Shown here piece by piece: positions 1 through 44,501 of a DNA stretch of 64,000 nt. Made by a program: the position numbers and the translations under genes. The stretch is taken from NCBI GenBank assembly GCA_005883615.1, contig VBEC01000024.1:1130-65129 (forward strand). The letters are read 5' to 3'. The notes under the pieces were generated by a model. That model was not told the DNA's origin and ran no database searches. It saw only the letters and a program-made list of their open reading frames with translations. This stretch comes from Chloroflexota bacterium (GTDB taxonomy: Bacteria > Chloroflexota > Limnocylindria > Limnocylindrales > CSP1-4). Numbering within the stretch: position 1 is the first letter of the stretch; every line of letters begins with the position of its first letter.

Positions 1-1676
1 CGCGCAAGGTCTCGCGCCAAGTCGACGATCTTTACGGGCTCGCCCATCTCGAGCACAAAGAGGTCGCCCGGTCCGCCGATGAGCGCAGCTTCCAGGATCA
101 GCCTGGCGGCTTCGGGAATCGTCATGAAGTAGCGGGTCATGTCGGGATGGGTGACCGTGAGCGGCACCCCCTCGGCGAGCTGCCGCTGGAACAACGGGAC
201 AACGCTTCCTGACGAGCCGAGGACGTTGCCGAAGCGGACCGCCACGTACGGTCGTCCGGACCGCCGAGCCGCGTCGGCAACGGCGATCTCGGCCAGGCGC
301 TTGGTCGCGCCCATCACAGACGAAGGTTCCACTGCCTTGTCGGTTGACACGAGCACGAACCGCTCGACTCCGGTCTCGAGAGCGGCGGTGAGCGCCGCAA
401 GGGTCCCGCCCAGGTTTGTATATACCGCGTCGGCCGGATGGGCCTCCATCATCGGAACGTGCTTGTAGGCTGCCGCGTGGAGGACGAGCACCGGCTGATC
501 CTCGCCGAGGACGCGCCGCATGGTGTCCACGCTCGCGACGTTGGCCAGGCGATCGACGAGCTGTGCACGCTTGCGGCCGCCGCGCGAGGCGGTCCCCGAA
601 TCGCGGGCCCCGAGCAGGGCCAGTTCACGTTCGATGTCGTACAGGGGCCCTTCCGCTCGGTCGAGCAGGACGAGCCGCCCGGGGTCGAGTTCGAAGACCT
701 GGCGGGCCAGCTCCGACCCAATCGAACCGCCGGCGCCCGTGACGAGGACCGTGCGCCCCGCGACGAGCTCACGGAGCCCGGTCTCGTCGATCATGATCGG
801 CTCGCGGCGGAGGAGGTCATCGACGCGCACTTCACGGATGGCCGTGGCGTTGGCACGACCAGATACGAGGTCTTCGAGGGCCGGCACGGTGCGCGTCTCC
901 ATGCCGAGTCGAGTGGCGTCCTCGACCGCCCGCCGGATGACCTCGCCGGCTGCGTTTGGCATCGCGATGAGCAGGCGCCTCGCGCCGGTGGCGCGGGCTA
1001 TCTCGGGCAGCTCGTCGATGGTGCCCAGCACCCGCACCCCGCGCAGGATCTGGTTGCGTTTGCTCCTGTCGTCATCGATCAGGCCCACCACCCGCTGCCC
1101 CAGGCCATCGCGAGCGGCACCCATTGTGCGCAGCACGGCGGCGCCAACCTCGCCGGCGCCGTAGACGAGAACCAGGACCGGGGCCGGCCGCGAGATCCCG
1201 CGATCCTTATCGCGTCGTCGGTCGGGGTCGCCCGGCCGCCAGCTGTGCCACTCGGTCGATGCCCGGATCAGGAAGCGAGCTCCGCCGAATCCCGCAAGTG
1301 TCAGCATGCCCTCGAGGATGAAGAAGGACCGTGGGAAGATCCCCACGTCGGTGACGGTGCCGCCCACTCGCAGGGGCACGAGGATCGTGTAGAAGGCGAC
1401 GATCCCCACGAGCGAGCCGAGCGCGACGACCACCGCGATCCGGGCGAGTTCGCCGATGCTCGCGTATGCCCATGCCCTGGAATAGAGCCCGCCGAGGTAA
1501 TTGACCGGCGGTCGAACGACCAGTGGAAAGAGCGCGGCCGGGAAATAGATCAGCGCCTCTTCGCTCAGCCGGAGCGTGTCGAAGCGGAGGGCCATCGCGC
1601 CGAAAATGGCGAGCGCGACGACCAACAGGTCGATCACGAAGAGATGGCGGCCGCGAATCGCCCCGATCCCCAGCAT
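1..1676 (-). CDS. CapD/PglF-like polysaccharide biosynthesis nucleotide-sugar dehydratase (3' end runs off the window)
   Basis: Manual translation from ATG at 1676 gives MLGIGAIRGRHLFVIDLL with N-terminal TMs, then VLVTGAGGSIGSEL, VRFGNVLGSSGSV and FVLEMGEPVKIVDLAR, which are CapD-family motifs. Absent from the ORF track because it has no stop in the window. Confidence 0.92.
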   Translation of the reverse strand, partial: MLGIGAIRGRHLFVIDLLVVALAIFGAMALRFDTLRLSEEALIYFPAALFPLVVRPPVNYLGGLYSRAWAYASIGELARIAVVVALGSLVGIVAFYTILVPLRVGGTVTDVGIFPRSFFILEGMLTLAGFGGARFLIRASTEWHSWRPGDPDRRRDKDRGISRPAPVLVLVYGAGEVGAAVLRTMGAARDGLGQRVVGLIDDDRSKRNQILRGVRVLGTIDELPEIARATGARRLLIAMPNAAGEVIRRAVEDATRLGMETRTVPALEDLVSGRANATAIREVRVDDLLRREPIMIDETGLRELVAGRTVLVTGAGGSIGSELARQVFELDPGRLVLLDRAEGPLYDIERELALLGARDSGTASRGGRKRAQLVDRLANVASVDTMRRVLGEDQPVLVLHAAAYKHVPMMEAHPADAVYTNLGGTLAALTAALETGVERFVLVSTDKAVEPSSVMGATKRLAEIAVADAARRSGRPYVAVRFGNVLGSSGSVVPLFQRQLAEGVPLTVTHPDMTRYFMTIPEAARLILEAALIGGPGDLFVLEMGEPVKIVDLARDLA

Positions 1677-1712
1677 CAGCCGCCCCCGGCGAACGTGTGC
1701 ATCCGGGCGAGT

Positions 1713-2354
1713 CTAGTGCGGTCCGGTGCGCCGGAGCACCTGCCCGATGGTCCTGCCCAGGATCGCCAGGTCGCCCCGCGCGCTCCTGTCCCGCAAATAC
1801 GCGGCATCCATCTCCAGCTTGAGAGGTAGGACGCGCTCGCGGTAGGCACGATCGAGATGCTCGGTGGTCGGGCCATCTGCACCGACCTCGTGCGCTAGGT
1901 CCGCCGCTTCGAGCGCGAGGAGCGCCTCCTCGTCCCGATAGGCCAATGCCGTCGGCCCAGTGATGCCCGGCCGGGCGCGGAACACCAGGGCGTGAACCGG
2001 GTCCGCGGGATCGACGTAGCGGGGATCTTCGGGTCGCGGTCCCACGAGCGCCATGTCGCCCTTCACGACGTTCCAGAGCTGAGGCAGCTCATCGAGCTTC
2101 GTGCGTCGAAGGAACCGACCGAGCTTCGTGATGCGCGGGTCGCCCAACGCAGTGACAGCCGGCCCGGAGACGTTGCCGGGGCGCATGGTTCTGAGCTTGT
2201 ACAACGTGAATGGCCCGTCGGCACCCATCCGTGCCGCGCGGTGCAGCGCTGGGCCTCGAGACGTGAGCCGGACCGCCAGCGCCAGGATTGCGAGGACGGG
2301 TGTCGCCAGCAGCAGGGTGACGCCCGCCAGGAGCCGTTGGGCGGCATACGGCAT
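1713..2354 (-). CDS. Monotopic phosphoglycosyltransferase (bacterial sugar transferase, PglC/WcaJ C-terminal type)
   Basis: YKLRTM, GRFLRRTKLDELPQLWNVVKGDMALVGPRPE motifs. Confidence 0.93.
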   Translation of the reverse strand: MPYAAQRLLAGVTLLLATPVLAILALAVRLTSRGPALHRAARMGADGPFTLYKLRTMRPGNVSGPAVTALGDPRITKLGRFLRRTKLDELPQLWNVVKGDMALVGPRPEDPRYVDPADPVHALVFRARPGITGPTALAYRDEEALLALEAADLAHEVGADGPTTEHLDRAYRERVLPLKLEMDAAYLRDRSARGDLAILGRTIGQVLRRTGPH

Positions 2355-2360
2355 TGCAGT

Positions 2361-3107
2361 TCAGCCCGGCTTCGTCAGCACGGCCCCAAGGTGCGAACGG
2401 AGGAACGGTAGAGCCGTCAGGGCCCGATAGCGTCGGGGACTTGCGGCCAGCGGACTCCGCATCAAGGGCGGCAGGAGGGTCATGGTCTTCGATTCGATCG
2501 CCCAGCCCGGGAACAGCCCGGCCAACACCCGGCGAGTCACCGGTCGTACCGCGCGATTGCGCGGGCTCGGGTAACGCAGGTCGTAGACCACGAGCCGTCC
2601 GCCAGGCCGAAGAACGCGGCCGATTTCCGCGGCAACTCGGCCCCGGAACCAGTCGTCCGGCACAGAGCTGAGTAGCGTCAGCGCAGCCGCGGCATCCACG
2701 ACTTCGTCCGCCAGTTGGATGCGATCCGCGCTACCCAGCAAAAACTCCCCCTGGGGCACCGCTTCGCGAGCCTCTGCTAGCGACGACTCGAGGATATCGA
2801 CGCCAATGTATCGAGCGGGCGAGCAACCAGCGCGGGCCAGGATGATTGCCAGGGCGCCCGAGCCGCAGCCAACGTCCAGCAGCGTCCCGTCGGCGATCGG
2901 GCAAAGTGCCTCACGAAGCCACTTCTCTCGCTCGCGCAGACCGATAACAGATCCCGCCGACCGGTCCAGCCACCGTTCGGCATACCCAGAGGACGCGTAG
3001 CCCGCATAGATCGCCCTCGTCCGTTCGATGATCGCCGACCTTGTCCGCTCGGAGTCCGGGTCTTGCGAGGCCTTGAGAGATGTTGCGTGCTCGTCGAAGG
3101 GACTCAT
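2361..3107 (-). CDS. Class I SAM-dependent methyltransferase
   Basis: LLDVGCGSG motif I, GVDIL, VLRPGGRLVVYD; embedded in glycan operon. Confidence 0.85.
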   Translation of the reverse strand: MSPFDEHATSLKASQDPDSERTRSAIIERTRAIYAGYASSGYAERWLDRSAGSVIGLREREKWLREALCPIADGTLLDVGCGSGALAIILARAGCSPARYIGVDILESSLAEAREAVPQGEFLLGSADRIQLADEVVDAAAALTLLSSVPDDWFRGRVAAEIGRVLRPGGRLVVYDLRYPSPRNRAVRPVTRRVLAGLFPGWAIESKTMTLLPPLMRSPLAASPRRYRALTALPFLRSHLGAVLTKPG

Positions 3108-4129
3108 GTCGGCTCACCGGGAGCGGCAGATCCCGATTGGGGTCGCCGCAGCCAGCCCGAGGACAAGCGAACGAGCCCTTCCCACGTCCCCAGGCCATAT
3201 GCCCCGTGAATGAGCAACATCGCGAACAGAACGCGGAGCGTCGACTCTCCTTCGTGTCGCATTCGCCGAGCGGCAATCGATAGGACCCCGACGTACGAGG
3301 TCGCGGCGGTCAACGTCAGGACCCACAGGCGGCGATCCAGGAAGCCAGCCAGGACGCCGGCAGACAACCCGACGACGAGTGCTGCGGGGGCCAGGTGGCG
3401 CAACCGGATCGCCGAGCGATGCTTACGGAAGACCAGGACCTTGCCCATGGCATACCCACGGTACTGAGCCGCCACGTCGCGCCAGGTGTCGCGCGGCTCG
3501 TAGAGCACCCTCACGGCCGGTTCCAACCAGATCGTTCCGCCCGCCTCGCGGATCCGGTGGCTCAGCTCGTTGTCCTCGTTGCGAATCATTTCTGGATCGA
3601 ACTGGCCCACGGTGTCAAACACCCAACGCGGCCACATGCCGGGAAACACGCCTTCGACGTACATGCCAGTCTGCGCGTAGTTGTACGTCGAATTGCCGAC
3701 GCCGAACGGGCTCGCCGTAGCACGCGCGATTGCTCGCTGCACCGGGTTTCGTCCGGCTCGCTCGATGATCCCGCCGACCGCCCAGGCCCCCGTACGCTCG
3801 AGTGCTTCGACCGCACGTTCCACATATTCGCTGGAAGGCACCGAGTGCCCGCTGATCGCCCCGACGATCGAACCTCGAGTTTGATTGATGCCCACGTTCA
3901 ATCCCGCGGCCGTACTGCGCCCGGGGTTCTCGACGAGCCGGATCCGCGAATCGGCCCGAGCCATCTCGGACACGATCCTACGAGTCGCGTCTCGCGAGCC
4001 CCCATCCGCGACGATGATCTCGAGGCGGTCCTTCGGGTAGGTCTGCTCCTGCAGGGCCGCGAGGCAGGCGGCAATCGTGCCCTCCTCGTTGAGGACCGGG
4101 ACGATGAGCGACACGTAAGGTCGTTCCAC
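3104..4129 (-). CDS. GT2 glycosyltransferase, ExoA-like
   Basis: VSLIVPVLNEE, ADGGSRD, RNEDNELSHRI, C-terminal TMs. Confidence 0.9.
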   Translation of the reverse strand: MERPYVSLIVPVLNEEGTIAACLAALQEQTYPKDRLEIIVADGGSRDATRRIVSEMARADSRIRLVENPGRSTAAGLNVGINQTRGSIVGAISGHSVPSSEYVERAVEALERTGAWAVGGIIERAGRNPVQRAIARATASPFGVGNSTYNYAQTGMYVEGVFPGMWPRWVFDTVGQFDPEMIRNEDNELSHRIREAGGTIWLEPAVRVLYEPRDTWRDVAAQYRGYAMGKVLVFRKHRSAIRLRHLAPAALVVGLSAGVLAGFLDRRLWVLTLTAATSYVGVLSIAARRMRHEGESTLRVLFAMLLIHGAYGLGTWEGLVRLSSGWLRRPQSGSAAPGEPT

Positions 4130-5593
4130 TCAGTCAGCCTGCCCGCGCAGCATCCCGGGGATCGTCCCCTCGAGGGCGAGTCCGCCGAGCGCGAGGATGG
4201 CCAGAAGCGCTCTGAGCCCGATCGACCCGGCGGCCGGACCCGAGGTTGCCGCCAGCGTAATCAGGGAGGCGCCGGCGACCAGCAGCGTCATCCGCCACCA
4301 GGGGAATCCGACCCTCACTCGCCTTCCATTCGCGAGCAGGCGAACGGTGGCGACCGCCGTGAATTGGCCAACAACCACCGACAGCGCCGTCCCCGCGCTG
4401 CCGAGGGCGGGCGCGAGCACCAGGTTTGACAAGAAAGTCACGGCGACGCCGCAGATCGCGGCAATGCCGAGGTCGCGCATGGCGCTGTCCATGGCACTCG
4501 GAAGGCACGCGACAACGTACAGCCCCATTGCGAGGGCTGCGACAAGCATGGCCCCAACTGCGGGCAGTACGGCCGGAAAACGGCCACCGGTCAGGAGCCC
4601 GACGACCTCCGGGGAGACCAGGGCCAGGCCAACGACGCCGGTCGCGACGACCGCGAGGATGCGCTGTCCATCGAGCGCGATGTGCCGCAATGCTGCATCG
4701 CCTCGGCCTAGCGCATAGGCGCGTGGCTGCCAGGCCAGCTGGAACCCCGCGACCATCAGCGCGGCGACAGAGCCGAAGCGCAAGGCCACCGAAAACTCGC
4801 CAGCAGCCACCGCGCCTGCCGTTCGATAGAGGTATGCCCGGTTGACGAAGTCGGCGATGCACGTCGCGGCAATGGCAGGAGCCAGCGGAAGCCCGAGCTG
4901 GAGCAGACGGCGCGCATCGGGTAGCTGTGGGCGGGCGCCGATGCTGTGCCTCAGCGCGAGGGCCGCGACTGCCGCCGTGCCGCCCCAGCTCGCCAGCAGC
5001 GCGACCATCAGCGCGACCGTGTCGGCTCGCCATTGGAGGAGCAATACGATCGCAAGAGCGGCGTTGGCTCCGAGGTAGGCGCCTTCGAGGAGCGCATAGG
5101 CGCCCGCGCGTCCCTGGACTCGCAGAACGGTCAGCGCCAGGGTGTGGAAGACCCCTCCGAACAGGATCAGGCCCACGAGTGCGATCGCCGGTGCGTGGGC
5201 GGACTCGCCAAGGAGCACCTGGCTGATAGGGCCCGACGCGAGGATGAGGATGGCGGCGACCGGGAGTACCACGATCCCCGCAATGGCATACCAGGTTCCG
5301 AACAGGGCCCTGCGGTCCTGGGTGCGTTCATCGAAGGCGAGGCGCGTCGTCGCGACGTCCATGCCGAGGACCAGCGTGCTCACGCCTGCGCCGGCCAGCG
5401 CGCTGATCACGTCGAACCGCCCGAATTCGGAGGGCGTCAGCAGGCGCGTCAGGACCGGCAGCATCAGGAATCCGATGGCCTTGCCGGCCACGGCGCCGAG
5501 CGCGAAGACCAGCGAATCGCGCGTAAGCCGGCCGAAGCCCGGGCGCACACTCAAGACGTCGCCCGGTGCGACCACGCCCAGCGTCTCGGTCAT
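4130..5593 (-). CDS. Wzx-like oligosaccharide flippase
   Basis: About 12-14 TMs; LPVLTRLLTPSEFG motif. Start moved to ATG 5593, which has TAGAGT 7 nt upstream. Confidence 0.85.
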   Translation of the reverse strand: MTETLGVVAPGDVLSVRPGFGRLTRDSLVFALGAVAGKAIGFLMLPVLTRLLTPSEFGRFDVISALAGAGVSTLVLGMDVATTRLAFDERTQDRRALFGTWYAIAGIVVLPVAAILILASGPISQVLLGESAHAPAIALVGLILFGGVFHTLALTVLRVQGRAGAYALLEGAYLGANAALAIVLLLQWRADTVALMVALLASWGGTAAVAALALRHSIGARPQLPDARRLLQLGLPLAPAIAATCIADFVNRAYLYRTAGAVAAGEFSVALRFGSVAALMVAGFQLAWQPRAYALGRGDAALRHIALDGQRILAVVATGVVGLALVSPEVVGLLTGGRFPAVLPAVGAMLVAALAMGLYVVACLPSAMDSAMRDLGIAAICGVAVTFLSNLVLAPALGSAGTALSVVVGQFTAVATVRLLANGRRVRVGFPWWRMTLLVAGASLITLAATSGPAAGSIGLRALLAILALGGLALEGTIPGMLRGQAD

Positions 5594-36973: not shown

Positions 36974-39010
36974 TCAGGCTTCCCTCACCGCCGGTATCAG
37001 CAGGCCGGCGAGACCGGCCCCGATCGCCACGAGTCCGAACACGCCCAATACCGGTGCGACGCCGACAGCCGAGGCGAGCAAACCGCTCAGGCCCATGGCC
37101 AAAGTCAGTGATCCGAAGACGAGCGAGAACCGGAACCCGACCACGCGCCCCATCAGTTCAGGCGGCGTGCGCTCCTGGAACAAGGTCTGGCTCGGGATGA
37201 TGTAGATCATGTTGGCGATGCCCGAGCCGAGGAAGAGGCCAAGCGCGAGTCGCAGCTGGCCAACGAAGGCGAGCATCGCGACGCACAAGCCGAATGCAAC
37301 GTAACCCACGGCGACGAGCCGGCCCTTGGCCAGACGCGTCCCGATAATGCCGATGGCGAAACCACCGATCAGGTTGCCAATGCCGATCGAAGTCTCGAGG
37401 AAGGCGTACGCAGCCTCCGGGTTCAACGGGCCCCGGGTGAGGGCCGTGTCCGCATAGACCGCGGTGAGGGCGGTGAGCCCGCCCGCTGCAAATTGGCCAG
37501 CCGCCCCCTGAAGCGTGTTGGTGAGCAGCACCGACTCATTCCGCAGGAAACGCCAGCCGGCAAGGAGCTCCTTGCGAAGTCCGGGCCGTTTTGGCGTCGA
37601 TTCGCGCTCCCCCCTTCGGATGACCGCCGGCACGACCATCGAAGCGATCATCACGGCTGAGGCGACATACGTCGCGGAATCGAACCAGAACGCGAGCGGC
37701 AGGGCCGTCCCCAGGAAGGCCACGAAGAGGCCTGCCAGGGGATAACCAACAACGTCTGCGACGGTCTCGCCCAGCCACATTGCTGAGTTGGCACTCAGGA
37801 GCTCGTCCTTGCCGACAATCCTGGGCAGGATCGCGGTCCGCGCCGGCCGGAAGAACAGCGAGATCGTAGTGACCAGAAAAATGAGCGGATAGACGAGCAC
37901 GAGGTTGGTCAAGGCGGCGATCGGGATCAGGAGAACCACGGCACCCCGCAGGAGGTCGCTCACGACCATTGTCTCCTGGAGGCTCCAGCGATCCACGAGC
38001 GTCCCGGCAACAGGACTGAGAATCAGATTGGGCAGGGTCGCGGCGACGAACACCAGGGCGACCGCGATAGGGGACTGCGTGGCTCGCAGGACGAGGAACG
38101 CCAGGGCGATCTGGTTCGCGCGGTCACCGAACAGGCTGATGAGCTGGCCCACCCACAAGGCGGTGAAAGACCCGTTCAGGGCAAGGCGGACGAACGGATG
38201 ACCGCGCGCTCGCGCTGCGACCCGGGCGGCGACGCCGGCTTCGGGCGTAACCGGGATCCGCCGCAGCGCCGCCGAGGAGGGCGAGGCCAGGCCGGCTCCG
38301 GCGCTGCCCAGGACGAGAGGGCGCTCCAGGCTCGAAGCCTGTGCAAGCCCGGGCGAAAGGCCGGTCGACCAGGGTCGGCTCCAACCCAGTGGCGTTTGGC
38401 TGAGCGAGGCCCCCGCGTCTGCGGAAGCGGCGCGCAGTTCCTCGGACTCGTCGTAGCGGCGAACGCTCGTCGCGAAGAGGAAGAAGGCGAAACCGGCGCT
38501 CAGGAACAGGTCGCCCACCGACGCGACGTTGCGGATGACCGGGACGGGGATCGGGATGATGTCGCCGATCGGACCGGCATGCAGCAGGAAGCCCGCATCG
38601 AGCGTGGCACGCAGAACGACGTGGAACGTCGAGGGTACGTCCGCGAGCGTGAATCCGGCGGCCGTCAGCGCGCGCTCCCAGATCGGCATGTGGCCGCCGT
38701 TGATAGCGATGGCTGCGGCGTTTGAAAGGATGCCGACGAAACAGAGCAGGAGGCCTGGCTGCCGGCGGTTCAACCAAAGGCCGAACAGGAGCAACACGAA
38801 ACTCAGCGTGTAGAGCGGCAGCCGCAAGGCATCGGCCGGCCCGACGCCTGCATTGATCGCCGCCTCCGTCCCGAAGCGGACGATGACGCCGGCGAACAGG
38901 ACCGGCACGCCCCGCAGCCGGACGTCGGAAATGTTGGTGATGAAGCCGATCAGGCTGCCGCGGGCGAGAAGGCCGAGCATCAGGCCCAGGGCAATGCCCA
39001 GGAGGATCAT
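36974..39010 (-). CDS. DUF5317-like membrane domain fused to an MFS transporter (DHA3/H+ antiporter-like)
   Basis: N-terminal about 185 aa with NAAAIAINGGHMP, GPIGDIIP, SVGDLF (DUF5317 pattern); linker; 12-TM MFS with LWVGQLISLFGD, GTLVDRWS, FFRPA, FQERTPPELMGRV. Confidence 0.8.
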   Translation of the reverse strand: MILLGIALGLMLGLLARGSLIGFITNISDVRLRGVPVLFAGVIVRFGTEAAINAGVGPADALRLPLYTLSFVLLLFGLWLNRRQPGLLLCFVGILSNAAAIAINGGHMPIWERALTAAGFTLADVPSTFHVVLRATLDAGFLLHAGPIGDIIPIPVPVIRNVASVGDLFLSAGFAFFLFATSVRRYDESEELRAASADAGASLSQTPLGWSRPWSTGLSPGLAQASSLERPLVLGSAGAGLASPSSAALRRIPVTPEAGVAARVAARARGHPFVRLALNGSFTALWVGQLISLFGDRANQIALAFLVLRATQSPIAVALVFVAATLPNLILSPVAGTLVDRWSLQETMVVSDLLRGAVVLLIPIAALTNLVLVYPLIFLVTTISLFFRPARTAILPRIVGKDELLSANSAMWLGETVADVVGYPLAGLFVAFLGTALPLAFWFDSATYVASAVMIASMVVPAVIRRGERESTPKRPGLRKELLAGWRFLRNESVLLTNTLQGAAGQFAAGGLTALTAVYADTALTRGPLNPEAAYAFLETSIGIGNLIGGFAIGIIGTRLAKGRLVAVGYVAFGLCVAMLAFVGQLRLALGLFLGSGIANMIYIIPSQTLFQERTPPELMGRVVGFRFSLVFGSLTLAMGLSGLLASAVGVAPVLGVFGLVAIGAGLAGLLIPAVREA

Positions 39011-39082: not shown

Positions 39083-40495
39083 CTAGCGGACGTCGGCGCC
39101 AGTCCCAGCCTCGAGGAATGCGCTCGATGCGCTCATGCTCCCGGCAGCCTGCGCGATCAACGGCACCGGCCGCAGGTCCAGCGTGCCACCCGGGTCGGCG
39201 ACCCCCTCGACCCAACCCGTCTTGACGAAGGCATCGACCACCGACGGATCGAACTGGATCCCCGCGAATTTCCGAAGCTCTCCGAGCGCTTGCTCCGCCG
39301 TCAGCGGCTTCATCCGGTATGGACGGGCAGCCGTCATCGCCTCGAACGCGTCGGCGACGTGGAGGACCCTGGCCAACTTCGGAATCTCGTCACCGATCAA
39401 ACGGTCCGGGTAGCCCGAGCCGTTGTACCACTCGTGGTGGTGCCGGATGATCGGCAGCTCCGGGGCCAGTTTGGTGACCGGCGCGATGATCTCGGCGCCC
39501 AGGACCGGGTGGGCATTCATCTTCATCCGCTCATCCCGCGTCAGGCGCTCCTGCTTGAGCAGGATGTTGTCGGGAACGCCGATCTTGCCGACGTCATGGA
39601 GGAGCCCGCCCCATTCCAGGGCCTCCAACTCCGGCTCGCCAAGGCGCATCACCCGCCCGATGTCGGTCGCGATCTGCATCACGCGTTTGGAATGGTTGCT
39701 GGTGAACGGGTCACGCTTGTCCACGGCCTGCGCCAGGCTGGCGATGGTCTGCGTGAACATCTCCCGCATTTCGACGAATCGGTGGTACGCCACCCTTGTC
39801 GTGTAAAGGGGCAAGGCAAACAGAAGAGTTGCCCACCATCCGACGTCAGGGACCTGGTATATCCGCGCCATCAGCCATGCAAGCGGAGCAAGTGCGAATA
39901 GGTTTGTTCCGAACCCTCTCGCGTCGCCGAGTGCGACGACCTTGAAATCTTGTCCGGTACGCAGTGCAACGAGGGTTGCAGTGATGAACACATTCGCCAC
40001 GAAGAAAACACCGGCGCCTGACAGAGTCCCCAAGAAATCGGGCCAGACAGCCGCGGGGCTTGTCTGGATCGTGCTGCACACAATCCCGCCGAGAACAGCA
40101 GGCAGAACGATTACCGCGTGATTCGCGAGGGTCCCGTACCAAGGCACTCGGCCGCGCAGTTCGCGGACTTCGAACGTGCCCACTGCTCCGACCCACCCCG
40201 CGGCGACCGGACCGCCGAGGCTCATTGCGGCAACGATCGGGGCGATGGAGACTGCCACTATCGTGCCCCGGGGCATCCGGACAGGCAAAGCCGAGGCACA
40301 TAACGCCACGAGGATCCAGAAGACGACACCGCCCAGGACGCTGGCCAACCCGTGATCCGAGGGCAGGATGGCGATGTCTTGCTTGATGCCAAGCACCCAT
40401 CCAGGCCTGGCGGAAAACACAAGACTCGTGGCTGCGAGCGAAACAGCACTCGAAACCACGAGTCCGAATATGTAGAGCTTCAGGGACCTGGGCAT
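39083..40495 (-). CDS. Membrane-sensor (about 7 TM, MASE-like) HD-GYP c-di-GMP phosphodiesterase
   Basis: Hydrophobic N-half; DKRDPFTSNHS, LLHDVGKIG, HPVLG, HHHEWYNGSGYP, VADAFEAMT, RPYR. Confidence 0.93.
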   Translation of the reverse strand: MPRSLKLYIFGLVVSSAVSLAATSLVFSARPGWVLGIKQDIAILPSDHGLASVLGGVVFWILVALCASALPVRMPRGTIVAVSIAPIVAAMSLGGPVAAGWVGAVGTFEVRELRGRVPWYGTLANHAVIVLPAVLGGIVCSTIQTSPAAVWPDFLGTLSGAGVFFVANVFITATLVALRTGQDFKVVALGDARGFGTNLFALAPLAWLMARIYQVPDVGWWATLLFALPLYTTRVAYHRFVEMREMFTQTIASLAQAVDKRDPFTSNHSKRVMQIATDIGRVMRLGEPELEALEWGGLLHDVGKIGVPDNILLKQERLTRDERMKMNAHPVLGAEIIAPVTKLAPELPIIRHHHEWYNGSGYPDRLIGDEIPKLARVLHVADAFEAMTAARPYRMKPLTAEQALGELRKFAGIQFDPSVVDAFVKTGWVEGVADPGGTLDLRPVPLIAQAAGSMSASSAFLEAGTGADVR

Positions 40496-40515
40496 CGGAG
40501 TCCTGTACGACTTAC

Positions 40516-40555
40516 ATGCCCACGCACTCTATACCCTCCGAGTTATCGCGGGCAT
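40516..40555 (-). other. Intergenic RNA hairpin between peptide gene and HD-GYP gene
   Basis: Arms ATGCCCGCG / CGTGGGCAT (9 bp incl. one G-U) with inner ACTC/GAGT stem. Confidence 0.5.
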
Positions 40556-40568
40556 TAGGTCATGCGTA

Positions 40569-40658
40569 CTAGAAGCCCCTAAATGACGCTCCGCCGGCAA
40601 GAGCAGTGGCCGCCACTGCCCCGAGGACAGTGAGCAGGCGATACAGCCTAGCCTTCAT
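40569..40658 (-). CDS. 29-aa signal-peptide-like small protein MKARLYRLLTVLGAVAATALAGGASFRGF (putative signalling-peptide precursor)
   Basis: Manual translation; SD AAAGGA 7 nt upstream of ATG; basic n-region, hydrophobic h-region, short polar/aromatic tail; lies between riboswitch and HD-GYP gene. Confidence 0.8.
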   Translation of the reverse strand: MKARLYRLLTVLGAVAATALAGGASFRGF

Positions 40659-40684
40659 CTGTCGATCCTTTGTCCTTGCCTTGT

Positions 40685-40717
40685 CTACCAGGGCTTGGTC
40701 GCGCTCTCAGGATTCAC
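40685..40717 (-). CDS. 10-aa uORF MNPESATKPW
   Basis: GTG start 7 nt after a perfect GAGGAGG, TAG stop at 40685. Confidence 0.4.
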   Translation of the reverse strand: MNPESATKPW

Positions 40718-40750
40718 GCTCGATCCTCCTCGCGGCCTTCGTGTCCAAGA

Positions 40751-40786
40751 AACACGAAAACCGACCAGACTGATTAGGTCGGTCGG
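40751..40786 (-). terminator. Intrinsic terminator forming the riboswitch expression platform
   Basis: CCGACCGAC-CTAATCA-GTC(T)GGTCGG followed by TTTTCGTGTTTCTT. Confidence 0.8.
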
Positions 40787-40851
40787 TTGCACTACTCGCT
40801 CCGCCCCACCCTAAGTGCCCATTTCAGGTGGGGCTTCGGCGCATTCCGAGC
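40783..40851 (-). ncRNA. Cyclic di-GMP-II riboswitch aptamer
   Basis: TCGGAA...GAA-GCCCCACC-TGAAATGGGCACTTAG-GGTGGGGC-GGAGCGAGTAGTGCAA-CCGA: P1 TCGG/CCGA, 8-bp stem, loop GGGCAC able to pseudoknot with GTGC, and the conserved GAG..AGTAGTGCAACCG 3' segment of the class II consensus. Confidence 0.88.
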
Positions 40852-40863
40852 GTCTTCACATCG

Positions 40864-40889
40864 CTTCCTAGTACTGAAGTACTGGGAAG
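40864..40889. promoter_or_regulatory. Near-perfect palindrome just downstream of predicted TSS (5' hairpin or operator)
   Basis: CTTCC-T-AGTAC-TGAA-GTACT-G-GGAAG. Confidence 0.55.
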
Positions 40890-40897
40890 TGAGCCGG

Positions 40898-40927
40898 ACT
40901 ATAGGTAGCCCGGAGTAGACCGGTCAA
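40898..40927 (-). promoter_or_regulatory. sigma70-type promoter for riboswitch/peptide operon
   Basis: TTGACC-N18-TATAGT on the minus strand. Confidence 0.75.
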
Positions 40928-40946
40928 TACGTCAGGTTACCTATCC

Positions 40947-43900
40947 TCACAGAGAATCCAAGGGCGGTGGCTCGATTCCGAGCTGGTCCCGCATCATCGT
41001 GGCATAGTGTCCGTACTGTTCGGCGGCCGCCGCGTGAGCGCCCGTCAGTCGGTAAAGTCTGAGAAGCGAGACCTCGATACCGTCGGCGTCTGGATCGATT
41101 TCAACAGCGCGCCGAGCGATCGCGATCGCGCGATCGAAGTGAGCTTGCCGGGTGTCGTCCGAAACCGATCTTTCAACCACCTCCAGGTACGCTGCATGGA
41201 GGGAGTCCCGGTAGCTACCAGCCCATTCCTCGTACGAGAAATCGAGTGCAAAACGGCCGGTGTAGAACGAACTGATCATCTCGATCGTATCCGAGGATGG
41301 CGCCCCTCTTACGCTCCGCAGAAGTTCTCGACAGTGCACACTTCGGGCGCGGATGAGGGTTTGGTCGAGCCAGATCACATCCGAATCGTGATGGACATAC
41401 CCCGCCGACAGGTCGTCCTTGTACCCGGGCTCGAAGGCTCTTCGCAAGAAATAGATGGTCTGGTTGAGAGAGTTGACTGCAACGACGGGCTCGAGATCTG
41501 GCCACAGCGCCTCAAGCACCTCGTCACGAGTCGCCGCCAGATTCGGGCGGGTTATCAGGAAACAGAGAAGCGACAGAACTTTGCGACGCAATTCCGTGCC
41601 GAGGATGGTCCGCTGTCCAACCGTGACTGCCACGCGTCCCAGGTCTTCAACAAAAACCGCAGGTGCCAGCCTTCGAGCCAGTCCTCTCCCCAACTCCGGA
41701 TCCGCCAGCGCTCCCTTGAGGCGCTTTGCCAGCGACCTGAGCACAAGCACATCCTCTTCGGCGCCCACGAGATCAAGAAGGCGTGCGGCCGCGGCACCGT
41801 GCTTGCCAACGGTCCGGATTCCATCCCGGAGAGGCTGGCGCCAGCGCTCGGGTCGTAATGCGACCTCGGAGGTGAGCCGACTCATGCTGTCGTCATCGAG
41901 ATCGCCAAGCCGCCCCACGATCGCCTCGGCAGCCATGCTTAGGATGGCCGGGTCCTCCAAGGCGATCGATCGAATCCCGGCGTTCATCGAGGCAGCTGGC
42001 TCCAGCACGAACCTCAACAGACGACAATAGCGAACCCATAGACCCGCACGTTGCTTGCGAGCCCATGCACTCGCGCGATCGACGATTTCAGAGGCATCGC
42101 GGCTCGATCTGCCGATCGCAATTTGCGCTTGCATGGCAAGTTGCCTTGAACCGTAAGCGGACTCTGCGGTGAATTCGTCTCTATCCAATGCGGCCACGAG
42201 GTCGGCGGCCTCTTCGAGACGAGATTGGCGGATCAGGGAATGCGCAAGCGACAGATTCCTAAGTCCGGAGAATTGTGGCTGCCAAATTGCGTAGCCATGA
42301 GCCTCGTGGAGCATCTGCTCGCCTACCAAGGCATCGCCGTACCAGTTTTCTATGTCGGCGGATTCGATCAGGACCTCCGCCTTTCCTAGCGCATGGGCCG
42401 ACGAGACAGCGACCCCAGAGGCGGCGCGGGCCTCGGCTAGTCGGCCTTCGTGCGCAAGTCCCCAAGCTAAGGCTGACTTGGCGGACGCCACTTCGTGCCC
42501 AGCTGAGGTCCCTTCCAGAAGCGTTGTGGCGTCAGACGCAGCCTTCACTGCTCCAGGCGCATCGCCCAGCGCCCGGCAAGCTGCAGCGACATTGTGGTAA
42601 GTGATCCCCAGATAGTGCTCGTGACCCCTCGCTTCCTGTTTGCGGGCCATGGCCATCAAGTGATCGCGGTAGCCGACGATGTCCCCGAACGTCGAGCTTT
42701 CGACTGCTAGGCGCAAACCTTGGGCGATCATTCGCAGATCGCCCTCCTGTGTCCGCTGCTCAAGCTCCTTGGCCCGCTCGCGCGCATCCTTGAGATTCCC
42801 AGCCGTGAAGAGCAGTGACATTAGGTTGGCAAGAGCTAGGTTCGAGATGTCGCACCGATCCTCTTCCCCAAACGATTCATATGCGAGGTGTGCCCGCCTG
42901 AGGGCCGCGCTGATTCGATCGGCGTTAATGTCAATACGCGAAAGAATCATTTGGACAACTGGGGTGGAGCTATACGCCGAAAGACTTTCGACATAGGACG
43001 CCGCGCGAGCGAACTCTCCACCACCCATGACTATTTCGACAGCGCCGATAATTACGGAGAACAAGGATGCGGTGTCACCAGTGTTCGCGTAATGGTAAGC
43101 CGCCAAACCCCAGTCCCTGCTTTCGGCAAACCGTGCGATCGTTCGGTGAAGTTCAACTACCCCTTCCGCGCCAATCTCGCGCCTGAGGCGCGCCTCCAGG
43201 AAGTCGCGCACGAGTGGATGGAAGCGCAGCGAAGAGTTGGCCAGTTCGGCGCGACGCGATATCAGCCCGAGGCGCTCAGATTCGTCAAGTGCCTGTCCGG
43301 CGTCCTCGACCGTCCGACCTGTTACGACGCTCGCAAGAACGGGATCGACGGTTTGGAGGATCGACGTGCGCATGAGAAACGCCTGCAGCGCCTCATCCAA
43401 GGTCCCGACCACTTCCTCGGCCAAGTAGTCGTGAAGCTCCCCATGCGCCCCACTGAGGTTGCGGATGAAGGAGCGCACCTGGGCGGCAGATCTGTCACGG
43501 AGGGCGGATTGGACGAGTTGCAGCGAGGCCGCCCAGCCTTCGGTTCGATGCGACAGGTCCGATAGCACGTCGGGATCGAGCGGACGGCCATAGGTATCGC
43601 GGAAGAGGCGTTCGGTCTCGTCCTGGTCGAAACGCAGATCGTCGGTCGTCAACTCGGCGATCTCGCCCTGGGCGCGGAGTCGGGCGACAGGCAAAGTCGG
43701 CACCCGTCGGCTGAGGACCACCAGCGTCATGCGCTCCGGCGCTCGCGTCACGATATCGCGCATGATCGCCTGCACCTCGGGGACATCGTCCACCAGGTGG
43801 TAGTCGTCGAATATCAGGATCGATCCCGAACCCAGTGTCCCGAGCTCGCGGATGAACGCCTCGACCACTGTGGACCGACTCGGCGCGCTGGTGCCCAGCT

Positions 43901-44324
43901 CGCGCAGGAGGCCGAACGTGCCAGGAGCGAACGTTGGGTCTATTTGGCGGCCTGCCGCGACCAGGTAATTGATGAAGCTGACCCAGTTGCGATCTTCCTC
44001 GTCGAGCCGATACCACAGGGTCGGTGGCCGACTGCGACGCGCGAAGTCCGACAGCAGCGTGGTCTTGCCATAGCCCGCTTCGGCGCTGACGAAGATCAGG
44101 CGGCTGTGGATCTTGCTGTTCAGCCAGTCGAGGAGGCGATCGCGGCGCAACGTTTCCGCGCGAAGGGGCGGTCGCTGTACTTTCGTGGCCTGGATCGGGA
44201 ACGTGCCGGATGCGTTGTCCGCTGGAGGCACGCCGCTATCAGCCCCGTCTCCGTCGTTTCGATCAGAACCGACCGACTGCTCAGGATCGGGAGCCGGGGA
44301 CGCTTGGTGGACGCCCTTGCTCAT
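40947..44324 (-). CDS. Large STAND-type transcriptional regulator: MalT-like NTPase, helical sensor region, C-terminal winged-helix plus BTAD (SARP-like)
   Basis: ATKVQRPP, Walker A AEAGYGKTT, WYRLDEED, LIFDDYHLV, TEGWAASL, YLAEEV, FHPLVRDFL; C-term RDEVLEALWPD, YEEW, AVEIDP, LGIEPPP. Start uncertain (44324 or 44393). Confidence 0.88.
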   Translation of the reverse strand: MSKGVHQASPAPDPEQSVGSDRNDGDGADSGVPPADNASGTFPIQATKVQRPPLRAETLRRDRLLDWLNSKIHSRLIFVSAEAGYGKTTLLSDFARRSRPPTLWYRLDEEDRNWVSFINYLVAAGRQIDPTFAPGTFGLLRELGTSAPSRSTVVEAFIRELGTLGSGSILIFDDYHLVDDVPEVQAIMRDIVTRAPERMTLVVLSRRVPTLPVARLRAQGEIAELTTDDLRFDQDETERLFRDTYGRPLDPDVLSDLSHRTEGWAASLQLVQSALRDRSAAQVRSFIRNLSGAHGELHDYLAEEVVGTLDEALQAFLMRTSILQTVDPVLASVVTGRTVEDAGQALDESERLGLISRRAELANSSLRFHPLVRDFLEARLRREIGAEGVVELHRTIARFAESRDWGLAAYHYANTGDTASLFSVIIGAVEIVMGGGEFARAASYVESLSAYSSTPVVQMILSRIDINADRISAALRRAHLAYESFGEEDRCDISNLALANLMSLLFTAGNLKDARERAKELEQRTQEGDLRMIAQGLRLAVESSTFGDIVGYRDHLMAMARKQEARGHEHYLGITYHNVAAACRALGDAPGAVKAASDATTLLEGTSAGHEVASAKSALAWGLAHEGRLAEARAASGVAVSSAHALGKAEVLIESADIENWYGDALVGEQMLHEAHGYAIWQPQFSGLRNLSLAHSLIRQSRLEEAADLVAALDRDEFTAESAYGSRQLAMQAQIAIGRSSRDASEIVDRASAWARKQRAGLWVRYCRLLRFVLEPAASMNAGIRSIALEDPAILSMAAEAIVGRLGDLDDDSMSRLTSEVALRPERWRQPLRDGIRTVGKHGAAAARLLDLVGAEEDVLVLRSLAKRLKGALADPELGRGLARRLAPAVFVEDLGRVAVTVGQRTILGTELRRKVLSLLCFLITRPNLAATRDEVLEALWPDLEPVVAVNSLNQTIYFLRRAFEPGYKDDLSAGYVHHDSDVIWLDQTLIRARSVHCRELLRSVRGAPSSDTIEMISSFYTGRFALDFSYEEWAGSYRDSLHAAYLEVVERSVSDDTRQAHFDRAIAIARRAVEIDPDADGIEVSLLRLYRLTGAHAAAAEQYGHYATMMRDQLGIEPPPLDSL

Positions 44325-44501
44325 GGGGCCATCAGGCCTCTGCCGGGCCAGCTTGCTCCTGGCGACGGCGGATCCGGGGTTGCGCAAGGGCATGGCGGCA
44401 ATGGTGCCCGACGCCCCTCATCCACCGATTAGCTGCGCGCACTGAGCCTCGCGTCGGCCGACCATCCCACCGTCCAGGAGGCATCCGGCGATCGCCTGCC
44501 G

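Follow-up and report, generated by a model that had tools for sequence, protein, structure and literature searches.

A class II c-di-GMP riboswitch with predicted ON logic ahead of an HD-GYP operon in Candidatus Limnocylindria

A riboswitch that senses cyclic di-GMP (c-di-GMP) and stands upstream of a gene for a c-di-GMP phosphodiesterase raises the question of whether the ligand switches on the enzyme that destroys it, and whether that enzyme is what the switch chiefly controls. Such an arrangement had been proposed, from a reading of the sequence alone, at 40751–40851 of a 64,000-nucleotide (nt) stretch of a Chloroflexota bacterium (assembly GCA_005883615.1, contig VBEC01000024.1, positions 1,130 to 65,129; hereafter the window, in whose numbering all coordinates are given). 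That sequence-only reading described a c-di-GMP-II riboswitch acting as a transcriptional ON switch for its own phosphodiesterase. Here we examine the aptamer, the helices that follow it, the genes of the operon and the RNA recovered from soil, and ask what the ligand would most probably bring about.

A conserved class II aptamer

The Rfam family RF01786 (c-di-GMP-II) matches positions 40856..40772 of the minus strand along the whole model (1–84 of 84). The covariance-model check that had been proposed for this locus returned a significant score of 59.2 bits, above the gathering threshold of 53.5 (E = 1.3e-10 over the whole 64-kb window and 1.5e-12 for the local region). No second family was found between 40300 and 41000 in a scan against all Rfam families with E up to 1. 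Of 80 Chloroflexota (Candidatus Limnocylindria) loci with the orthologous HD-GYP gene, 75 carry the core motif GTGCAACCG 280–370 nt ahead of that gene; in the other five, the available upstream DNA is too short. These loci come from a one-genome-per-species scan with the downstream HD-GYP protein (orthologues 61–71% identical), and nearly all are metagenome-assembled genomes of Chloroflexota / Candidatus Limnocylindria. The recurrence of the motif at the same place excludes chance as the source of the aptamer. Among 15 orthologous loci tested, 12 reach the gathering score, at 53.6–67.4 bits. We regard a genuine c-di-GMP-II aptamer at this position as close to certain. The window belongs to a soil organism, its sequence being present in 20 soil metagenome runs. 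Most conservation counts below refer to alignment A1, which holds 73 sequences. The parts of the aptamer are as follows.

40772..40856 (−): c-di-GMP-II aptamer, from RF01786 and covariation in A1
40849..40846 with 40782..40779, plus the pair 40851–40777 (−): P1, from the Rfam alignment
40843..40841 with 40799..40797 (−): P2
40837/40836 and 40801/40800 (−): G·A pairs of the kink turn (k-turn)
40834..40827 with 40810..40803 (−): P3, stem GCCCCACC/GGUGGGGC
40818..40815 with 40792..40789 (−): pseudoknot
40788..40783 (−): conserved core AACCGA

All class II hallmarks named in the sequence-only reading were recovered on the minus strand: the GGAA following P1, a long P3 stem, the P3 loop GGGCAC and GGAGCGAGUAGUGCAACCG. 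Projected onto A1, the Rfam structure has 91% of its cells paired and nine pairs with compensatory changes, and none of 500 shuffles reached the observed value. Compensatory changes are seen in six of the eight P3 pairs, and pairing in P2 stands at 98.6%. The k-turn nucleotides (G26/A27 and G62/A63 in A1 columns) are invariant, and the GCAC/GUGC pseudoknot, which joins the GGGCAC loop to a 3′ GUGC, pairs in 73 of 73 loci. Because these nucleotides never vary, they match the family yet supply no proof by covariation. In the ligand pocket, AGUnGUGCAACCG, T69 and G71–G79 are invariant and A70 is kept in at least 90% of the 73 loci, the roles of individual core nucleotides being those of the Rfam consensus only. 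The aptamer is predicted to bind c-di-GMP specifically and with high affinity.

P1 is the part of the aptamer in which our assignment departs from the earlier one. It comprises four well-kept pairs, UCGG (40849..40846) with CCGA (40782..40779), and one further pair, far short of the 11-bp consensus. A duplicated CCGACC, CCGACCGACC at 40786..40777, had been pointed out and is indeed present, so that two CCGA copies offer themselves as the 3′ strand. The upstream copy (40786..40783), to which P1 had been assigned, is 4 nt out of register: that CCGA belongs to the conserved unpaired AACCG core, and the assignment conflicts both with the Rfam alignment and with locus L067. The single compensatory change in P1 occurs in L067, whose helix GUUCGC/GCGAAC carries a G-C to C-G swap that fits only the 40782..40779 register. 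A weaker 6-bp hairpin, thought able to form even with P1 in place and so to leave the switch leaky, depended on the mistaken register; since the folded aptamer occupies both CCGA copies, the concern falls away.

Competing helices T and H2ext

Downstream of the aptamer, two conserved helices compete for the same nucleotides.

40757..40788 (−): hairpin T with its U-tract, candidate terminator, from fold energy and pairing in 73 loci
40733..40763 (−): helix H2ext, from covariation and RNAalifold

The 5′ arm of T, AACCGACCGAC (40788..40778), joins the AACCGA core to the 3′ strand of P1, 11 nt in all that are shared with the aptamer. Its 3′ arm is GUC-U-GGUCGGUU (40770..40759), after which comes UUUUCGUGUUUC; the U-tract UUUU occupies 40760..40757 and is followed by CGUGUUUC. 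The hairpin and U-run that had been read from the sequence are present, whereas the stem is not the continuous 9 bp described but 8 bp and 3 bp set apart by a 1-nt bulge (−15 kcal/mol, z −2.46). T is 97.4% paired across the 73 loci, and three to five U residues stand directly 3′ of GGUCGG in 70 of them. When nascent RNA is modelled up to the U-tract at the level of secondary structure, T is more stable than the aptamer by about 16–18 kcal/mol, and the unconstrained fold yields T without P1. T would thus be the default state, in which only ligand and tertiary energy could hold the aptamer. Because T uses nucleotides that the aptamer needs, it cannot coexist with the ligand-bound aptamer, which implies ON logic; the 11 shared nucleotides bear out the earlier deduction that a terminator overlapping the 3′ part of the aptamer makes the ligand an ON signal. 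On this architecture, a class II aptamer with ON logic is very likely.

The U-tract remains U in a genome of 67% GC. Its partners in H2ext alternate between A and G, and C-G replacements are found in only 2–4 of 73 loci. The retention of the U residues while their partners vary points to a constraint beyond pairing, and suggests that they are also constrained as the tail of a terminator.

H2ext pairs CGGUUUUCGUGU (40763..40752) with ACACGAAGGCCG (40744..40733). This helix, absent from the sequence-only reading, covaries better than any other part of the expression platform: it is 97.8% paired, 6 of its 12 pairs show compensatory changes, no shuffle in 500 matched it, and RNAalifold predicts it independently. 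The length of the U-run tracks that of the opposing purine run (3/3, 4/4, 5/5). The base of H2ext reuses the last 5 nt of the T 3′ arm and the U-tract, and consequently only one of the two, T or the base of H2ext, can form at a time. On its 3′ side stand CGAGGAGG and the Shine–Dalgarno sequence (SD) AGGAGG, with no U-run, H2ext ending 2–5 nt before the SD; a helix followed by an SD rather than by U residues is not a terminator. We infer instead that H2ext captures the T 3′ arm after read-through and so holds the RNA in the ON fold beside the SD.

These elements suggest the following mechanism. The leader runs from promoter through a 5′ hairpin (P0), the aptamer, T with its U-tract and H2ext to a strong SD, with the coding part after it. 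Without ligand, the 3′ arm GUC-GGUCGGUU would displace the AACCGA core and P1, a weak helix of 4 bp, from the aptamer; T would form beside UUUU and RNA polymerase would terminate, making OFF the default. Bound c-di-GMP would lock P1, the core and the pseudoknot, T could not nucleate, and polymerase would read through. H2ext would then arise as the freed T 3′ arm and U-tract pair with AAGGCCG, the purine strand further downstream, setting the ON fold just upstream of the SD. High c-di-GMP would in this way induce two small peptides and, at a lower level, an HD-GYP protein and a transporter, and a negative feedback loop would result if the HD-GYP protein hydrolyses c-di-GMP. That the switch acts mainly by termination at T is a model we hold with moderate confidence.

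Three loci depart from this layout. L067 (3656-3820), L074 (3654-3818) and L060 (3629-3793) keep the aptamer and the first small open reading frame (ORF) and have neither the T hairpin nor the U-tract; L067 has in place of T a possible SD-pairing hairpin, GCUCC/GGAGC. They may be translational variants of the same switch.

The operon and its RNA

The promoter, the cistrons and the neighbouring regulator gene all lie on the same strand.

40685..40730 (−): SD AGGAGG (40730..40725), 7-nt spacer and 10-codon ORF from GTG 40717 to TAG 40685 (MNPESATKPW)
40568..40657 (−): 29-codon ORF, MKARLYRLLTVLGAVAATALAGGASFRGF, conserved in about 65 loci (alignment A3)
40504..40568 (−): long intercistronic hairpin from single-sequence folds, about 65 nt between the 29-codon ORF and the HD-GYP gene
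39083..40495 (−): HD-GYP gene, 470 amino acids (aa), Pfam HD_5 at 5.4e-39
36974..39010 (−): DUF5317-MFS fusion gene, 678 aa, Pfam DUF5317 and MFS_1/MFS_3
40898..40927 (−): sigma-70-type promoter, 10 of 12 matches in a consensus scan
40864..40889 (−): 5′-terminal hairpin P0, CUUCCCAGUAC-UUCA-GUACUAGGAAG (alignment A4)
40947..44393 (−): SARP-like regulator, 1148 aa, with an N-terminal AAA ATPase and a C-terminal winged helix and BTAD domain

The order of genes in the 80 loci is SARP-like regulator, riboswitch, 10-codon ORF, 29-codon ORF, HD-GYP, DUF5317-MFS, orf201 and PCMT. The proposal of a switch for its own phosphodiesterase stands in so far as the HD-GYP gene lies downstream and is co-transcribed, but needs amending in that the gene is the third cistron, after two mini-ORFs and a structured spacer.

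The first cistron after the switch, with the strongest SD in the leader, is the 10-codon ORF, which is found in 72 of 73 loci and has 9–11 codons in 68. It is conserved at the amino-acid level, with the consensus M-x-P-[ED]-x-x-x-K-G-[WFY]; a C-terminal K-x-[W/F/Y] (K at −3) is kept in 71 loci. In the 58 ORFs of exactly ten codons that were compared codon by codon, all four proline codons are used for Pro3, 44 have E or D as the fourth residue, and translation stops at TAG or TAA. Tandem repeats of the mini-ORF occur in four loci, L007 (3674+), L008, L011 and L021, as in MEILAITKGW-SLLSITKGW-GIRSITKGW or in MESTSVTKGW followed by three copies of TVLAVTKGW, and to judge from these sequences the tandem form looks like a multi-copy peptide precursor. 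The 29-codon ORF, annotated as 'hypothetical protein' in public gene calls, has the consensus MKxRLxRLxxxLSxVAxxALAGGASL[KR]GF*: a signal-peptide-like or transmembrane-like segment, then A-x-A (ALA here) and an 8-residue tail, GGASFRGF. The C-terminal [KR]-G-F is similar to the K-G-W with which the 10-codon ORF closes, so both peptide consensuses end in [KR]-G-aromatic. NCBIfam has no match for either peptide.

Between the 29-codon ORF and the HD-GYP gene, the spacer measures 72–77 nt in most loci. Folded to minimum free energy (MFE, −25 to −35 kcal/mol), it gives a long irregular hairpin with a stem that varies in sequence from locus to locus and a conserved apical motif, GGAGGG(A/U)AUAGAGU, GGAGGGAUUAGAGU. 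MAFFT followed by RNAalifold gave no consensus structure for the spacer, owing to the poor alignment. The base of the hairpin includes the HD-GYP SD in L010, L013 and L028. On these folds, the hairpin could be a processing, stability or attenuation element.

An HD-GYP gene downstream on the same strand was correctly foreseen: its catalytic motifs are intact (LLHDVGK and HHEWYNGSGYP, with HHHEWYNGSGYP at the HHExxDGxGYP site), and an RNA contig described below joins it to the aptamer. Its relatives in the PDB are V-cGAP3 (5z7c), PmGH (4mcw) and PA4781 (4r8z). The N-terminal multi-transmembrane domain is weakly MASE9-like (PF20972, residues 56–235, E = 4e-4), its 20.7 bits falling below the Pfam membership cut-off of 24.3. 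The adjoining gene, next to HD-GYP in 77 of 80 loci, fuses a DUF5317 membrane domain to an MFS transporter that NCBIfam places in an H+ antiporter / EntS-like efflux subfamily (EntS/Mef-like). No paper on DUF5317 was found in the literature searched.

The leader begins at a promoter with −35 TTGACC (40927..40922), an 18-nt spacer and −10 TATAGT (40903..40898), a pattern conserved in about 70 related loci as CGTATTGACC – 17/18 nt – CCTATAGTCC. We place the transcription start near 40891. P0 begins 1–2 nt after this point; 84.5% of its cells in A4 are paired, 10 of its 11 pairs are compensatory in at least one sequence, and it is probably a 5′ stabiliser. A GATAGGTA box lies upstream of the very strongly conserved promoter (region 40864..40935). 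A gap of 20 nt separates the promoter from the end of the SARP-like gene, which keeps its syntenic place in 67 loci and whose product is a candidate transcription factor for the riboswitch promoter.

RNA from this locus was available as assembled metatranscriptome contigs. In four small soil metatranscriptomes, contigs of the window's own strain run without a break across T, between about 40876 and 40489. Three independent ones stop at 40489/40490, about 13 nt past the spacer hairpin; all the own-strain contigs lie within 40422–40913, and none falls in the HD-GYP body or the upstream gene. Their depths are low (2–4), and they prove presence, not absence. As own-strain RNA covers the leader and small ORFs and not the HD-GYP body, the output would comprise more than the phosphodiesterase. 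A strain of 97% identity contributes a contig of 949 nt, at depth 49 in a larger run, that joins 40797 to 39849: read-through RNA exists, and the HD-GYP gene is co-transcribed at least in part. The HD-GYP coding region is represented by less RNA than the leader and small ORFs.

In the large soil metatranscriptomes X26, X27, X30 and X34, positions 40732..40899 are covered at depths of 700–5300, and positions just downstream at 5–78. Leaders of this family are thus well represented among soil RNAs, in a figure that sums many strains. The 100- to 1000-fold excess over the aptamer is unusable as a measure of termination, because many strains collapse onto the conserved aptamer and because of the likeness filter, set at 90%, which the strain-specific downstream parts fail.

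Alternative outputs and known systems

Several observations count against a switch that works mainly by termination and mainly on the phosphodiesterase. The U-tract is short, four U residues and then CGUGUUUC, and a crude script run on this window found no canonical hairpin-plus-U terminator after about 45 long ORFs; the polymerase of this lineage may not use such signals efficiently, although the script result taken alone speaks neither for T as a terminator nor against it. Runs of at least four T are rare in the window (57, both strands together). Given this rarity and the absence of hairpin-U terminators after long ORFs, the conserved hairpin-UUUU of the riboswitch stands out. Own-strain contig depth is about equal on the two sides of T, which means either that T is inefficient or that the switch was mostly ON in those soils. 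A purely terminator-based model also needs no role for the strictly conserved H2ext. On the side of the enzyme, RNA coverage falls at the HD-GYP start, and the gene may be controlled mainly by the intercistronic hairpin. Its best PDB relative by sequence is V-cGAP3, an enzyme specific for 3′3′-cGAMP; with such a relative, c-di-GMP is a presumed substrate, and the feedback loop that depends on it is presumed too.

A translational ON switch on full-length mRNA, with T serving only as an anti-aptamer sequestor, could replace termination or act together with it, although we consider this rather unlikely. The freed P1 5′ strand, ACGCUCGG (40853..40846), would pair with UCGAGCGU (40723..40716), that is, the SD–start spacer and the GU of GUG, and so block translation of the mini-ORF; ligand would bring about P1 and H2ext and release the start region. 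Complementarity of 7–8 bp exists in 49 of 73 loci at a median duplex energy of −13 kcal/mol, and unconstrained MFE structures do form this helix. In models, the free fold exposes the start region less than the aptamer-forced fold does (accessibility 0.33 versus 0.53), an ordering that holds in 49 of the 73 loci. Both segments are conserved at the nucleotide level without a coding or aptamer reason, L060 carries a compensatory CGUUCG/CGAACG change, the weak U·G/U-A base of H2ext would suit a reversible switch, and canonical terminators are rare in this genome. The covariation of the long-range helix, however, does not exceed that of shuffles, and in 24 loci with a variant P1 5′ strand the cognate pairing is no better than the non-cognate (p = 0.33). 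Complementarity is lost in L007, L008, L011, L013 and L033, all of which keep the aptamer, T and H2ext. Sequestration of the SD itself was rejected as an output, its modelled accessibility being the same in the aptamer-forced and free folds (0.59 versus 0.60). Because T and H2ext are kept in loci that lack the potential for long-range pairing (L007, L008 and L011) and SD accessibility is equal between states, termination is the simplest output; the long-range helix is possibly a second layer, modelled to act in the same direction, and not the core mechanism. The same unchanged SD accessibility speaks against an OFF switch in which ligand promotes H2ext and H2ext represses expression. Such a scheme gains from the fact that H2ext can form only when the T 3′ arm is free, in the aptamer-folded state, but H2ext is followed by CGAGGAGG and not by a U-run, and T, the sole leader hairpin with a U-tract, competes with the aptamer. 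We give this scheme almost no credence.

If termination at T is accepted as the working model, what it chiefly regulates can still be read in more than one way. The switch might mainly control a stable RNA of about 400 nt for the two peptides, reaching from P0 to the hairpin near 40504, with HD-GYP expressed much lower and governed chiefly by that hairpin, so that the phosphodiesterase loop is minor. The confinement of own-strain contigs to 40422–40913, with three ends at 40489/40490 and none in the HD-GYP body, would fit, as would a spacer hairpin conserved in length and fold that holds the HD-GYP SD at its base in three loci, and a mini-ORF placed directly after the switch behind the strongest SD of the leader. 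These contigs, at depths of 2–4, show presence and not absence, however, the deeper contig from the 97%-identical strain runs from aptamer into HD-GYP, and all 80 loci have the gene order and spacing of one operon. We treat this short RNA as a possibility, if a doubtful one, and the HD-GYP feedback loop as a fairly probable, real but secondary output. Riboswitch-derived small RNAs (sRNAs) occur in Listeria, and the terminated leader (P0, aptamer and T, about 140 nt) could likewise be a stable sRNA, acting in trans or as a ligand sponge. It would carry protective hairpins at both ends, and the depth over the aptamer in the four large soil metatranscriptomes might seem to speak for it. That depth, however, sums many strains whose downstream parts are filtered out, the high-depth contigs run past 40751 into the H2 and SD of other strains, and own-strain depth does not drop across T, all of which makes an sRNA very improbable.

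The features of the peptides allow a further and tentative proposal, which their sequences suggest and which we think may hold but would not favour: that the primary output is the peptide pair and not the enzyme. A leaderless decapeptide and a 29-residue pre-peptide releasing GGASL[KR]GF would be exported by the DUF5317-MFS protein or act in the membrane, perhaps modulating the MASE9-like HD-GYP protein.

Among known switches, the pbuE (ydhL) adenine riboswitch of Bacillus subtilis has a comparable design. It is an ON switch without a separate antiterminator, in which the terminator takes its 5′ arm from the 3′ part of the aptamer and the two compete kinetically. The direct competition between aptamer and terminator is alike here, whereas aptamer class and ligand differ and pbuE is not known to have a mini-ORF as first cistron. 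We know of no downstream partner helix like H2ext for pbuE.

Within the class, the four class II riboswitches of Clostridioides difficile are terminator-based ON switches (PMC6366702). They belong to the same RF01786 family, and in these, especially Cdi-2-4 upstream of pilA1, the ligand-free RNA forms a terminator and c-di-GMP leads to read-through (PMC6366702). The host here is a high-GC uncultured member of the Chloroflexota and not of the Clostridia, and ON switching is predicted from sequence. The targets are mini-ORFs, HD-GYP and a transporter in place of pili or adhesins, P1 is only 4 bp, and an extra covarying helix, H2ext, would capture the terminator 3′ arm and U-tract after read-through. 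The proposed H2ext lock is without a described counterpart, and so are the peptide-coding first cistrons.

c-di-GMP riboswitches ahead of c-di-GMP turnover genes were noted at the discovery of both classes (PMC12564702), and riboswitch feedback on such genes is called rare in reviews (PMC6366702). The present locus shares this layout of a riboswitch before a gene for turnover of its own ligand, with the enzyme as third cistron. In the literature searched we found no characterised c-di-GMP riboswitch with an HD-GYP gene, none conserved across a class-level lineage, and no paper linking the c-di-GMP-II class to Chloroflexota. The MASE9-HD-GYP proteins TM1467 of T. maritima and HdgA of S. venezuelae likewise combine an integral-membrane N-terminal domain with an HD-GYP domain that has all catalytic motifs, and the MASE9 survey mentions neither a riboswitch nor a neighbouring small ORF (bioRxiv 10.1101/2021.11.05.467447); the match here, as given above, is below the Pfam cut-off.

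A class II aptamer is thus fixed before an HD-GYP operon throughout Candidatus Limnocylindria, an uncultured class abundant in soil and freshwater, together with its promoter and a neighbouring regulator gene, and the c-di-GMP-II family extends into a high-GC phylum. The locus is a clean candidate from nature for a second messenger under ligand-induced negative feedback, and its well-covarying platform of T and H2ext offers a means to study how an ON switch makes its choice final once polymerase has read through. Should the peptides be functional, they would tie c-di-GMP to signalling by peptides or small proteins in a soil lineage that is both abundant and uncultured.

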